Below, one piece after another: positions 8,845-15,000 of a stretch of DNA of 34,699 bases. Numbering within the stretch: the stretch's first letter is position 1; every line of letters begins with the position of its first letter. The notes under the pieces are model-generated. The model did not search any database. It had not been told where the DNA came from and saw only the letters and a program-made list of their open reading frames with translations. The stretch lies in contig JBHLKM010000026.1 in assembly GCA_048886685.1 (NCBI GenBank), forward strand, positions 1 through 34,699, given 5' to 3'. The position numbers and the translations under genes were made by a program. Source of the DNA: Candidatus Hodarchaeota archaeon. Lineage in GTDB: Archaea; Asgardarchaeota; Lokiarchaeia; Sigyniarchaeales; SOKP01.

Positions 8845-8986
8845 AGATTAAAGAAATTAACAAAAAATTGAGCTTGACTGAGATTTAAATTTATATAATT
8901 AGGATAGGTTAATGAATACATAAAATTCTCTCTTCAAGCTTTGATTATTTTAAAATAAATATATAAACAATTCCTAAAAAATTTTT

Positions 8987-9433
8987 TTATTGCAAATTCT
9001 CTCTTATAGATGTAGAACTAATTTTCTTTTTGTTTTTATCTTTAATTATTGGAATCACAATAAGAATGAGCGGTTTTAATCCCATTTCTTCTCTGTTATT
9101 ATTTAGCTTTAAAGCATTTTCATATGTTTCTTGACTTACTATTAATCCCTCATATTCAGGATCTTGAGCATATTTATTCATATCATCCCAATTTTTAATT
9201 TCAACAATGTTAATCCGATTAATATTTGCAAAAGTACTAATATATTCTTTTAAATTTGCTTCTCTTGTGTTATAATCTTCCAATTTTGAAGCAAACTGCT
9301 TGTTCTCTAATAATTTCTGAGTAGTTAATCCAATCTCGATAAATTCAGATATAGATAGAGCAATTTTTAATAAAAATTTATGACCCTCGTGAAGATGATC
9401 GAAAGTCCCCCCTAATCCAACTTTCTTAAGAAT
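8987..9433 (-). CDS. coaD: Phosphopantetheine adenylyltransferase (archaeal/eukaryotic-type PPAT), probable ATT start
   Basis: Extending the supplied 98-aa ORF upstream gives (M)LKKVGLGGTFDHLHEGHKFLL (GGTFDxxHxGH), plus IVSQET, N..R...GLKPL and KISSTSIR. There is an in-frame TAA at 9446-9448 and no ATG/GTG/TTG between it and the HxGH motif. ATT at 9433 follows the SD AAGGTGA. Confidence 0.88.
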   Translation of the reverse strand: MLKKVGLGGTFDHLHEGHKFLLKIALSISEFIEIGLTTQKLLENKQFASKLEDYNTREANLKEYISTFANINRINIVEIKNWDDMNKYAQDPEYEGLIVSQETYENALKLNNNREEMGLKPLILIVIPIIKDKNKKKISSTSIRENLQ

Positions 9434-9465
9434 TAGAGAATCACCTTATCCTTTTTGTTAAATCT

Positions 9466-11169: not shown

Positions 11170-11376
11170 GCAGTCTACTTTTTATTTCGCTTTTTTTCTT
11201 ATTCCCTTACATTTTAAAAACTCAACTACTTAAATCTTAATAGATTTTTATAATCTCTTAAATAAGAAAATAGTAATTGTTTTATAATTGAGGGAATAAG
11301 ATTAATTAATTTATTTTTTAATAAAATGAACTTAATGTCTAAAATTAGTTATACTAAAATTTGAGGTGTAAAGAAA

Positions 11377-13248
11377 ATTTACGGATATATGGGTAAAATT
11401 ATAAGAGTTGATTTATCTAGTGGACAAATTACTGAAGAATTTCCTGATGAAAACACATTAAAAATGTATTTAGGCGGATCAGGCTTAGCTACAAAATACT
11501 TAATTGATGAAACACCAAAAGGAATTGATCCGTTAGGACCAGAAAATAAACTAATTTTTATGACTGGTCCATTAACAGGAACTCCATCACCTAGTACAGG
11601 AAGATATAGTGTAGTTGCAAAATCACCGCTTACAGGAGTCTGGGGGGAAGCGAATTCAGCGGGTTTTTGGGGTCGAGACCTAAAAAGATCTGGCTTTGAT
11701 GGGGTAATTTTTGAAGGAATTTCTCCCAAACCGGTATATCTTGTCACTGAAGATGGAAAAGCAGAACTCAGAGATGCATCACAGCTCTGGGGCAAAAATA
11801 CTTCAGAAACAACAAGGATTATAAGAGAAGAATTGGGTGAAAAATTCAATGTAGCTTGCATTGGTATCGGAGGAGAAAATTTAGTAAAATATGCTGCTGT
11901 TATGAATGACTGTGATAAACCCAATTACGGACGAGCTGCTGGAAGATGTGGAATGGGCACAGTTATGGGTTCTAAGAAAGTCAAAGCTATAGCATCTAAA
12001 GGTGATGCTAAGATTGAAGTTGCAAATCCAGAGGAATATAAGATAGAAGCTAAACAGAGGTATGATTGGGTAAACCAGAGTATGCTGAAAATGACCCTTG
12101 AAGTGTTTGGAACTGCCACAATGGTGGATTTAGTAAACATTAAGGGTGGCTTGCCTACAAATAATTGGCAGACCGGGGTATTTCCCGCTGCTGATAAAAT
12201 TAATGGTACGGCAATAAACGAAACAATTCTCACAGGACGCAAGCCATGTTTTGCTTGTCCAATAGCATGTGGACGATTGGCTGAAATTAAGGAGGGTAAG
12301 TATAAAAGTACAGGTGAGGGCCCTGAATATGAATCGATTGGAGCACTTGGGACGATGTGCGGAGTTGATAACTTGGAAGCAATTACCTTAGCACATTTTC
12401 TTTGTAATGAATATGGTCTTGATGTAATTTCTGCAGGTAATACGATTGGATTTGCAATGGAATGTTATGAGAAAGGTATTATAACCAACGAAGACACAGG
12501 TGGTTTAGAATTCAATTTCGGTAATGCTGATTTGGTAGTTGATATTATTTCTAAAATAGGTAAAAGAGAAGGAATTGGAGATCTACTTGCTGAAGGAACA
12601 AGGAAAATGGCAGAAAAATTGGGTAAGGATTCTCATAAATTCGCTATGCATGTTAAAGGCTTAGAACTTCCTGCTTATGATAGTCGAGCTGCTAAAATTA
12701 CAGGATTAGCTTATGCTACAGCAAATAGAGGTGGATGTCATATAACGGGTTATATTGAAGGACCAGCATTCTTATCAATGCCATTTATGATTGTAGAAGA
12801 TGCCACAGTTGGAGATGTTCTAACTGAAAATCCAGAAGATACTAAGGTTGTTAAAGATTTCGAAGATGCATTTGGTTTATTTGATGCTATTGGTGGTTGT
12901 AAATTTATGGGTATGGTTTTAACTTCAGAGGATTGGGCAGCACTTATTCAAAAATTATTAGGCTATGAATTTACCAAACAGGATTTTACAAAAATGGGTG
13001 AGAGGTTATATAATCTAGCCAGAGTTTATAATGTAAGAGAAGGAGTTACAAGAGCTGATGACACTCTTCCACCACGCATGTTAGAGGACCCTATGCCCGA
13101 GGGACCGGCTCAGGGAGAAACTGTAAATTTAGATCCTTTATTAGATGCATATTATGAATATCGTGGGTGGGATAAAGAGACGGGGAAACCTACTAAGGAG
13201 AAACTAAAAGAATTAGGGTTGGAATGGGCTATTAAAGAAATATATTAA
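11377..13248 (+). CDS. aor: Tungsten-containing aldehyde:ferredoxin oxidoreductase family protein (probable ATT start at 11377; first ATG at 11389)
   Basis: Motifs GPLTGT, KSPLTG, GRCGMGTVMGSKKVKAI, CFACPIACG (4Fe-4S), GPEYE, GLDVIS, RGGCH and YYEYRGWD. The family-typical N-terminus MYGYxGKI is obtained only from ATT 11377, 8 nt after the SD GAGGTG. Confidence 0.93.
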   Translation: MYGYMGKIIRVDLSSGQITEEFPDENTLKMYLGGSGLATKYLIDETPKGIDPLGPENKLIFMTGPLTGTPSPSTGRYSVVAKSPLTGVWGEANSAGFWGRDLKRSGFDGVIFEGISPKPVYLVTEDGKAELRDASQLWGKNTSETTRIIREELGEKFNVACIGIGGENLVKYAAVMNDCDKPNYGRAAGRCGMGTVMGSKKVKAIASKGDAKIEVANPEEYKIEAKQRYDWVNQSMLKMTLEVFGTATMVDLVNIKGGLPTNNWQTGVFPAADKINGTAINETILTGRKPCFACPIACGRLAEIKEGKYKSTGEGPEYESIGALGTMCGVDNLEAITLAHFLCNEYGLDVISAGNTIGFAMECYEKGIITNEDTGGLEFNFGNADLVVDIISKIGKREGIGDLLAEGTRKMAEKLGKDSHKFAMHVKGLELPAYDSRAAKITGLAYATANRGGCHITGYIEGPAFLSMPFMIVEDATVGDVLTENPEDTKVVKDFEDAFGLFDAIGGCKFMGMVLTSEDWAALIQKLLGYEFTKQDFTKMGERLYNLARVYNVREGVTRADDTLPPRMLEDPMPEGPAQGETVNLDPLLDAYYEYRGWDKETGKPTKEKLKELGLEWAIKEIY

Positions 13249-13287
13249 GTTATATTACCAAAATTCTATTAAAAAAAGGTGAAATTG

Positions 13288-15000
13288 ATGGGTGAAGAAA
13301 AGAAATTAACCTATGCCGATAAACCATGGCTAAAATCTTATGTTGTAGGTCCCTTTAAACTCAAGCATACTATGGAACCATATCCTAAGATAAATGTCTA
13401 CAAGTATCTTGAAGATAGCGCTAATACTTATCCAGATAATATTGCATGTGTTTATTTAGATGATGAAATTACTTATAAAGATTTAAAATTAAAAGTTGAT
13501 AAATTAGCAAACGCTTTTATTGATTTGGGTTTAAAAAAGGGAGATACCGTAGCGTCTGTCCTTCCCTCATGTCCTGAGTTCATCTTAATAGATTATGCTG
13601 CTATGAAAATGGGTGCAATACACGTACCATTAAGCATTTTGCATAAAACCGATGATTTAGTTCACGAATTTAAAGAAAGTAGTGCTAAAACGGTACTTTG
13701 TTCTTACAGGCGTCTTGAACGTATAAAAGAAACCAAAAATGAAGTCGAAATTGATACAGTTATATATACTCCAACAAGATTATTTCCTGATTATGAACTC
13801 CCTGAAATAAAAGAGATACAAGAAAAGGGATATTATTCTTTGGATTATTTATTAGAGAAATATGATCCACTCGAAAAAGCAATTGAAATAGATCCTATGG
13901 AAGATATAGCACTTTTACCATTTACTGGTGGAACAACTGGACTTCCAAAGGGGACAATGCTAACTCATTATAACATTACATCGAATATAATTCAATTAAT
14001 GCATTGGATGCTTGATCCCCTAAAAGTGGGAATTCTGGGAAAAGCAGCTATAGTAATTGGTGTTCCTATTTTTCATGCTTATGGACATTTCGTAATACAT
14101 TCATGTATTTCGATGGGATTAAAAATGTTATTAATGGATCCAAGAGATATGGTGAGGATTGTTGATGTTATAAAAAAGAATCGACCTTTTATGGTTACAG
14201 GTGTTCCTGCTCATTATATGAGGTTCCTTAATTTAGATATTCCTAAAGCACCAATATTTTACCTATCTGGAGCTGCACCAATGCCGCCTGATCTTGCTGA
14301 GCAATTTGAACAAAAAACTGGTGTTCCTATGGGTGAGGGGTATGGTGCGACAGAAACAGTAGCAGTTTCAACAGTAAATATTTCACCACTTTCAAAGGTT
14401 ACAGGTTTTATGGCTTCGAAAAAAGAAGGTATTGGTGTACCAGTACCAGATACGGAGGTAAAAATTGTTGATCCAGAAACAAGGGAGGAAATACCTTTTG
14501 GTGAGTCAGGTGAAATATGGATCCGTGGTCCCCAGGTAATGAAAGGTTATTGGCCAACCCCTGGTAATGGTTTAACTGAAGATGGATGGCTCCGTATGGG
14601 TGATATAGGCAGAATGGATGAAGATGGGTATTTTTATATTGAAGATCGCATCAAAGATATGATTAATGTATCAGGAAATAAGGTCTATTCAAGGGTAATT
14701 GATGATATTCTTCATGAACATCCTGCAGTAAGTGTAGCGGGTGTAATAGGAATACCTGATCCAGAAAGACCAGGCAGTGAAAGAGTTAAAGCGTTTATAA
14801 CCCTCAATAAGGAAAACGAAGGAAAAGTTAGTGAACAAGACATTATTGACTTTTTAAAAGATAAAGTTAAACCTTATGCTGTGCCTAAGTATGTAGAATT
14901 TAGAAAAGATCTGCCATTAACATTAGCAATGAAACTTTTTAAACGACAACTTAGAACTGAAGAAATTGCTAAAATGAAAGAAAGGGGAGAAATTAAATAG
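13288..15000 (+). CDS. Long-chain fatty acid--CoA ligase (AMP-forming, ANL superfamily)
   Basis: Motifs FTGGTTGLPKG (P-loop), EGYGATE, GEIWIRGPQVMKGYW, GDIG.MDEDG and DRIKDMI. Start placed at ATG 13288, 6 nt after the GGTG of the SD. Confidence 0.9.
   Translation: MGEEKKLTYADKPWLKSYVVGPFKLKHTMEPYPKINVYKYLEDSANTYPDNIACVYLDDEITYKDLKLKVDKLANAFIDLGLKKGDTVASVLPSCPEFILIDYAAMKMGAIHVPLSILHKTDDLVHEFKESSAKTVLCSYRRLERIKETKNEVEIDTVIYTPTRLFPDYELPEIKEIQEKGYYSLDYLLEKYDPLEKAIEIDPMEDIALLPFTGGTTGLPKGTMLTHYNITSNIIQLMHWMLDPLKVGILGKAAIVIGVPIFHAYGHFVIHSCISMGLKMLLMDPRDMVRIVDVIKKNRPFMVTGVPAHYMRFLNLDIPKAPIFYLSGAAPMPPDLAEQFEQKTGVPMGEGYGATETVAVSTVNISPLSKVTGFMASKKEGIGVPVPDTEVKIVDPETREEIPFGESGEIWIRGPQVMKGYWPTPGNGLTEDGWLRMGDIGRMDEDGYFYIEDRIKDMINVSGNKVYSRVIDDILHEHPAVSVAGVIGIPDPERPGSERVKAFITLNKENEGKVSEQDIIDFLKDKVKPYAVPKYVEFRKDLPLTLAMKLFKRQLRTEEIAKMKERGEIK

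Follow-up and report, generated by a model that had tools for sequence, protein, structure and literature searches.

A conserved ATT codon behind a Shine-Dalgarno motif as the probable start of an aldehyde:ferredoxin oxidoreductase gene in a Lokiarchaeial genus

We analyzed the start of aor, a gene for a predicted aldehyde:ferredoxin oxidoreductase (AOR) of a Candidatus Hodarchaeota archaeon. The window, i.e., the whole stretch of DNA analyzed, is contig JBHLKM010000026.1 (34,699 nt; assembly GCA_048886685.1), which is one complete contig (C26) of a 4.42-Mb metagenome-assembled genome (MAG) with 30.9% GC. Public gene calls start the gene at an ATG at position 11389 and shorten its product to 619 aa. 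Judging from the ribosome-binding site, the alignment with solved AOR structures and the orthologous loci, the real start codon is very probably the ATT at position 11377. We consider it highly likely that this AUU is used in ordinary Shine-Dalgarno (SD)-directed initiation and represents one case of a lineage-wide habit of starting genes at ATT, ATA or ATC (collectively ATH).

Results

The aor start region and its ribosome-binding site

The elements around the proposed start, all on the forward strand, are as follows.

11362–11364, forward strand: in-frame TGA that closes the aor frame on its 5' side and overlaps the SD; orthologs also have a stop here
11363–11368, forward strand: SD motif GAGGTG, complement of the 16S rRNA 3' end of a congener and invariant in 26 distinct orthologous sequences
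11369–11376, forward strand: 8-nt spacer TAAAGAAA, constant in length and variable in its letters among orthologs
11377–11379, forward strand: ATT, proposed initiation codon, present in 26/26 distinct sequences; the column of Met1 in 1AOR and of ATG or TTG in outgroups
11380–11388, forward strand: codons 2–4, TAC GGA TAT (Tyr-Gly-Tyr), predicted N-terminal residues with only synonymous or Y-to-F changes
11389–11391, forward strand: ATG, Met5, the start chosen by public gene calls; 20 nt from the SD and probably an internal conserved residue
11377–13248 (including the stop codon), forward strand: aor coding sequence, 623 aa counted from the ATT, with AFOR_N and AFOR_C domains and an alignment to 1AOR

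Downstream of the TGA, the aor frame runs GGT GTA AAG AAA ATT TAC GGA TAT up to ATG 11389, with no earlier ATG, GTG or TTG. The last G of GGTG is separated by 8 nt from the ATT and by 20 nt from the ATG. SDs are used sparingly in this genome: of 2038 ATG starts that are unambiguous, ~100 have GGTG 5–11 nt upstream and 1 has it 20 nt upstream, and GAGGTG would therefore serve codon 11377 rather than ATG 11389. The 16S rRNA of one congener ends in GGATCACCTCC, whose CACCUC is fully complementary to GAGGTG, which makes the latter a perfect 6-nt SD. Positions 11363–11391 show no variant in DNA contigs from four sediment runs, of which two may have been the origin of this assembly's DNA.

The locus itself shows no sign of gene-specific regulation. 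A riboswitch-like control of aor by its leader was considered and dropped because an Rfam search returned nothing for the leader (E up to 1), the RNA fold of positions 11340–11420 was no better than those of shuffled sequences (z 0.02), and the DNA 5' of the SD is poorly conserved among orthologs.

The N-terminus of the predicted protein

The open reading frame (ORF) is a predicted member of the tungstopterin AOR family. Its product matches AFOR_N (residues 6–209; 261 bits, cut-off 29.8; 7e-78) and AFOR_C (residues 231–615; 473 bits, cut-off 27; 9e-142), and residues 1–615 align with residues 1–601 of Pyrococcus furiosus 1AOR (E 2.6e-162). In this alignment, the residue encoded by the ATT falls on Met1 of 1AOR (MYGNWGRFIRVNLS); the solved structure 9MQX has the N-terminus (M)FGYMGKVLRVNLS. 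The CxxCxxxC motif KPCFACPIACGR lies opposite KPCYACPIGCGR, and the distal cysteine is found in GGCKF opposite AGLCLF; we take these cysteines of 1AOR to be the ligands of its [4Fe-4S] cluster. All AOR paralogs elsewhere in the genome start with ATG or GTG, so the ATT start is not a trait of the AOR family.

Conservation of the ATT start among orthologs

Our first comparison comprised aor orthologs (78–94% identity) from 17 other species-level genomes of the same Promethearchaeia (Lokiarchaeia) genus. All 17 share the order GAGGTG, 8 nt, ATT, TAY, GGN, TAT, ATG. A scan of GTDB species genomes widened the set, and the pooled 33 loci represent 26 distinct sequences, in every one of which the GAGGTG, the 8-nt spacing and the ATT are invariant, with freely variable spacer letters and DNA 5' of the SD. 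Codon 2 is mostly TAC (23 sequences; TTC in 2, TAT in 1), codon 3 is GGT (21) or GGA (5), and codon 4 is TAT throughout (26/26). The elongator isoleucine at codon 8 drifts among ATT (16), ATA (7) and ATC (3), as does the one at codon 18. This is the pattern of translated codons behind a selected start codon, unlike that of a decaying relic.

Outside this set, the ATT column is occupied by other start codons. It is ATG in a Promethearchaeota MAG (81% identity), in Thor-labelled MAGs and in Dehalococcoidia, Desulfobacteria and other bacteria (55–66% identity), and TTG in one Heimdall-labelled MAG. The AOR N-termini of the outgroups all read M[YF]G[YF]MGK. In orthologs with an unambiguous 5' ATG, the column of Met5 holds an internal Met, or His/Ile; one public AOR protein, MYGYIGK, has Ile at this column and hence lacks an internal ATG that could act as the start. 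The aor locus provides the cleanest comparative proof, with ATG and ATT interchanging at one column and ATT fixed throughout the genus.

These results bear on an original prediction made from the DNA of the window alone. The 8-nt and 20-nt distances and the TGA cap that it described were all seen in the sequence, and the AOR-type N-terminus that it expected from reading the ATT as Met agrees with both the 1AOR alignment and the outgroup proteins. It had further proposed that an alignment of orthologous DNA might reveal start-codon interchange, which was found, with outgroups carrying ATG or TTG where the genus has ATT. It also expected the upstream Tyr-Gly-Tyr to be kept, as it is apart from synonymous and Y-to-F changes.

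A maximum-likelihood tree unites 24 of the ATT sequences (support 100/96) and places one more congeneric ATT sequence with a clade of ATG and ATA sequences. This topology calls for two changes, either one gain and one reversal or two gains. Ortholog L046 (~601; 74% identity) carries ATA where the genus has ATT, preceded by a canonical ATG one codon 5' (ATG-ATA-TAC-GGG-TAT-ATG), and may represent an ATH start that was "rescued" by a new ATG. In the same tree, the sister of the archaeal clade is a Chloroflexota sequence, suggesting that this AOR subfamily was transferred between domains; the nearest non-Asgard relatives are bacterial (55–66% identity; Dehalococcoidia, Desulfobacteria and Syntrophomonadaceae).

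Public annotations differ in the start that they use. Among the 120 closest database proteins, 73 begin with MGKI at the internal ATG, i.e., without the first four residues, and 38 begin with M[YF]G[YF]MGK. A further two start at a chance ATG in the spacer and read M-K-I-Y-G-Y (P0014) and M-K-K-I-Y-G-Y (P0060). Four of the loci (L003, L034, L035 and L039) have a chance in-frame spacer ATG, located 2 nt after GGTG and two codons before the ATT.

A companion ATT start at coaD

Another ATT start lies 2 kb from that of aor, on the opposite strand.

8987–9433, reverse strand: coaD-like phosphopantetheine adenylyltransferase gene, 148 aa from the ATT at 9433–9431
9441–9447, reverse strand: coaD SD AAGGTGA, with AAGGTG at 9447–9442, 8 nt before the ATT

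Each of the 17 congeners with coaD has GGTG, 8 nt and ATT, and in 5 of these 17 a stop codon immediately precedes the ATT. The nucleotide-binding motif GGTFDHLHEGH lies seven codons 3' of the ATT, far before the first canonical start. In other families of the order, coaD starts with ATG.

ATH starts across the genome

To place aor and coaD in the context of the whole genome, we used 3644 stop-to-stop ORFs (non-overlapping, minimum length 100 codons) and scored as SD any match of at least 6 nt to AGGAGGTGATCC located 5' of the first canonical start. This test replaced an earlier profile that lacked ORF-start filtering and was swamped by in-gene GGTGAT codons. An in-frame ATG, GTG or TTG followed at a gap of 5–10 nt in 149 cases, and 131 SDs were orphans. 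Behind the orphan SDs, ATT occurred 36 times in frame vs 6 and 1 times in the other two frames (binomial p 1.4e-13); the corresponding counts were 19 vs 10 and 8 for ATA and 9 vs 1 and 2 for ATC. In-frame ATH counts peak at a gap of 7–8 nt.

After subtraction of the out-of-frame background, ~50 ATH starts remain with SDs of at least 6 nt (roughly one quarter of such starts) and ~70 with SDs of at least 5 nt. As a lower bound, ATH starts thus account for at least 1.4–1.9% of long ORFs. An SD of at least 6 nt accompanies about two-thirds of the excess ATT starts vs 36% of canonical starts, which suggests that the weak codon tends to go together with a strong SD. In five genes with an ATT behind a strong SD, Pfam profiles begin at position 1–2, within 5–10 residues of the ATT and 21–63 codons before any canonical start; their SD-to-ATT gaps are 6–9 nt, mostly 7–8.

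C5:86893–87630, reverse strand: ThiF-like gene; Pfam ThiF precedes the canonical start
C23:21267–22628, forward strand: geranylgeranyl-reductase/FAD (GGR-FAD) gene; Pfam match precedes the canonical start
C11:39187–40308, forward strand: succinyl-CoA-synthetase-beta-like (ATP-grasp_2) gene; Pfam match precedes the canonical start
C18:73947–74348, reverse strand: Usp gene; Pfam match precedes the canonical start
C40:6890–7534, reverse strand: DUF4386 gene; Pfam match precedes the canonical start

As a control, the same script was applied to 1.2 Mb of one complete genome of a sister family (G031) with equal GC. Here, 44 canonical SD-led starts were found and no in-frame excess was seen (ATT 3 vs 6 and 3; ATH 6 vs 8 and 7), so the orphan-SD method is not self-fulfilling. 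An equal-sized part of our genome gave 22 in-frame ATH vs 5 and 5 (Fisher p 0.006 against G031). Based on this one 1.2-Mb control, the ATH habit seems to be lineage-specific and apparently confined to its own family or genus.

Initiation factor aIF1 and initiator tRNA

The gene for the initiation factor aIF1 (SUI1) is itself among the ATH-start genes. It is located on the minus strand of contig C33 with the ATT at 8934 (locus L133:1474-1791:-). In this genome and in every congener with a readable start, aIF1 has no ATG, GTG or TTG before the zinc knuckle and begins with ATT; in other families of the order, it starts with TTG, GTG or ATG, with one probable ATA. Counted from the ATT, the protein has 106 aa, of which residues 5–103 align with residues 3–101 of the 102-aa Methanocaldococcus jannaschii aIF1 (4MO0). 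No fidelity-relaxing substitution is obvious in aIF1, as its basic loop RKWGR-VT and its ASGGT loop are the same as in the sister families.

The genome has an ordinary initiator tRNA with anticodon CAU, A1:U72, a GGG/CCC anticodon stem and one intron. No special initiator tRNA for AUU and no initiator-like stem with another anticodon was seen among the ARAGORN calls, which are incomplete and noisy. Over the whole genome, ARAGORN reported 14 tRNAs when introns were not considered and 35 noisy calls when they were, including a tRNA-SeC(TCA) and a Pyl-like call; in a genome so rich in introns, tRNA detection is evidently far from complete.

With regard to the remaining parts of the original prediction, the identical 8-nt SD spacing it noted at the two ATT starts recurs at coaD as AAGGTG, 8 nt, ATT, and its view that neither start is an error is borne out by their conservation across congeneric genomes. 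It had counted the two as independent: both starts stand, and their independence does not, since they are instances of what is probably one lineage-wide habit. The relaxed start-codon selection it proposed is supported genome-wide by the in-frame excess of ATT behind orphan SDs. For the regulated selection that it named as well, neither a conserved leader structure nor an Rfam element was seen, and a possible link to aIF1 draws on the ATT start of that gene and on the in-vitro discrimination of AUU by aIF1 (PMC4705826). The inspections it suggested of the 16S rRNA anti-SD and of aIF1 yielded a congeneric 3' end complementary to GAGGTG and a factor gene with its own ATT start and unchanged codon-monitoring loops.

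The gene downstream of aor

The next gene on the forward strand has a canonical start.

13276–13290, forward strand: start of an AMP-binding (acyl-CoA synthetase-like) gene with SD AAGGTGA, 6 nt and ATG 13288

The GTG listed as its start (13279) falls within its own SD, and ATG 13288 is probably the real start. As this canonical SD-led start lies 40 nt 3' of aor, the two genes are probably co-transcribed.

Discussion

Proposed mechanism

We propose that GAGGTG pairs with the 3' tail of the 16S rRNA and that this pairing brings the AUU, which lies 8 nt further on, into the P site. There, the ordinary initiator Met-tRNA (CAU) would accept the AUU despite a third-base mismatch, and the AOR protein would begin M-Y-G-Y-M-G-K, as canonical AORs do. 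Under this model, the aor ATT goes back to an ancestral ATG and has been maintained by selection across the Promethearchaeia (Lokiarchaeia) genus. Behind strong SDs, ATT and less often ATA and ATC would start at least ~50–70 genes, among them coaD and aIF1. Owing to the third-base mismatch, the yield from AUU should be below that from AUG and translation should be sensitive to the aIF1 level, and an aIF1 mRNA with its own AUU start would close a feedback loop. A further-reaching proposal, which we put forward as tentative and consider on the whole rather unlikely, is that the genes with AUH starts make up a translational regulon that responds to the aIF1 level, with an aIF1 mRNA started at AUU like that of infC in bacteria. 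Initiation stringency would then have been lowered specifically in this lineage, in view of the lack of an ATH excess in 1.2 Mb of the sister-family genome and of the mostly TTG, GTG or ATG starts of aIF1 in the sister families.

Alternative explanations

Ribosomes might use both the SD-led AUU 11377 and AUG 11389 and so produce two isoforms, one four residues longer than the other. The AUG is just 12 nt downstream and as invariant as the ATT, so some initiation there is possible, and if the AUU is weak, a fraction of the ribosomes could move on to this AUG. However, Met5 is equally conserved in orthologs where column 1 is a canonical ATG, so protein-level selection alone explains its conservation, and SDs spaced 20 nt from a start are no more frequent than background here; we therefore judge dual initiation to be improbable. 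Initiation at ATG 11389 alone, which would leave ATT-TAC-GGA-TAT as an untranslated relic of an ancestral ATG start, agrees with the choice of gene callers (and with the 73 of 120 closest proteins that begin with MGKI) and uses the sole canonical start available. A relic should have decayed like the spacer, yet the ATT is kept in 26/26 sequences and codons 2–3 change only synonymously or conservatively in a clade with 78–94% amino acid identity. With the SD also 20 nt away from the start codon that it would have to serve, this explanation appears very unlikely. In a single MAG with an estimated contamination of 8.4%, one might suspect a decaying gene or an error of sequencing or assembly, but the ATT recurs at 33 loci from independently assembled genomes, the contigs of the four runs agree, and the 623-codon frame is intact with full-length Pfam and PDB matches. 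Cross-genome conservation already refutes this explanation, whose probability we regard as negligible.

Several points nevertheless weigh against an AUU start at 11377 as part of a lineage-wide habit, in addition to the contamination estimate and the invariance of ATG 11389. The congeneric orthologs are kin, so that their counts overstate independence. The anti-SD was taken from a congeneric genome, as the 16S rRNA was not assembled in this MAG, nor in 4 of 5 congeners. The control covers 1.2 Mb of one sister-family genome. Finally, aIF1 of Sulfolobus solfataricus rejects AUU model mRNAs in vitro (PMC4705826). Weighing these points with the conserved SD spacing, the outgroup ATG and the genome-wide excess, we still favor SD-directed initiation at ATT 11377.

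Implications

Gene finders limited to ATG, GTG and TTG shorten or miss genes with ATH starts. Under standard gene calling, coaD would lose its nucleotide-binding motif and aIF1 would be left without a callable start. Asgard proteomes intended for phylogeny, structure prediction or expression therefore need ATH-aware re-annotation. Furthermore, since the ATH habit is frequent behind strong SDs, apparently lineage-specific and coincident with an ATT start of aIF1, start-codon fidelity of the eIF1/eIF2 type becomes testable here with recombinant factors.

Comparison with known systems

ATT, ATC and ATA are among the start codons of NCBI table 11, and infC and pcnB of E. coli are textbook examples of AUU starts. 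In bacterial infC, which encodes IF3, the AUU start serves autocontrol (PMC4705826). Our case resembles E. coli infC in that an SD-led AUU would be the conserved, genuine start of an intact gene and in that the gene of a start-codon fidelity factor of the lineage, here aIF1, appears to be AUU-started itself. The factor here, however, is aIF1, a homolog of eIF1, and not IF3; and while infC is a rare exception in E. coli with a demonstrated feedback, the starts described here would extend to dozens of ordinary metabolic genes, with a feedback that we only infer. Eukaryotic eIF1 (SUI1) autoregulates via a poor start context (PMC4705826). In both cases, the mRNA of a fidelity factor would carry a weak initiation signal, so that its synthesis should rise as fidelity drops; the weak signal of eIF1 is the Kozak context of an AUG, whereas that of aIF1 would be a near-cognate codon behind an SD, with a presumed link to regulation.

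Within the Asgard archaea, a "rare ATT start codon" was described for the tubulin gene atubA of Kariarchaeaceae (bioRxiv 10.64898/2026.02.15.705738; Sci Adv PMC13394414). Beyond this anecdote, the literature that we searched contained no systematic account of ATT starts for Asgard or other archaea. In both atubA and aor, a deposited Asgard protein is N-terminally cut, and an upstream ATT at a plausible distance from a ribosome-binding site restores the conserved N-terminus. In contrast to atubA, a single case from Heimdallarchaeia that was argued from a structure prediction, aor belongs to a Lokiarchaeial genus and comes with conservation in 26 sequences, ATG/ATT interchange with outgroups and genome-wide statistics. 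The restored N-terminus matches the P. furiosus 1AOR pattern MYGxxG[KR]xIRV[ND]L residue for residue from position 1, with the difference that the column of P. furiosus Met1 is ATT here and that our AOR is a predicted enzyme. In conclusion, the comparisons place aor as a putative case of SD-led AUU initiation of a known type, within an unusually frequent, lineage-wide use of such starts.

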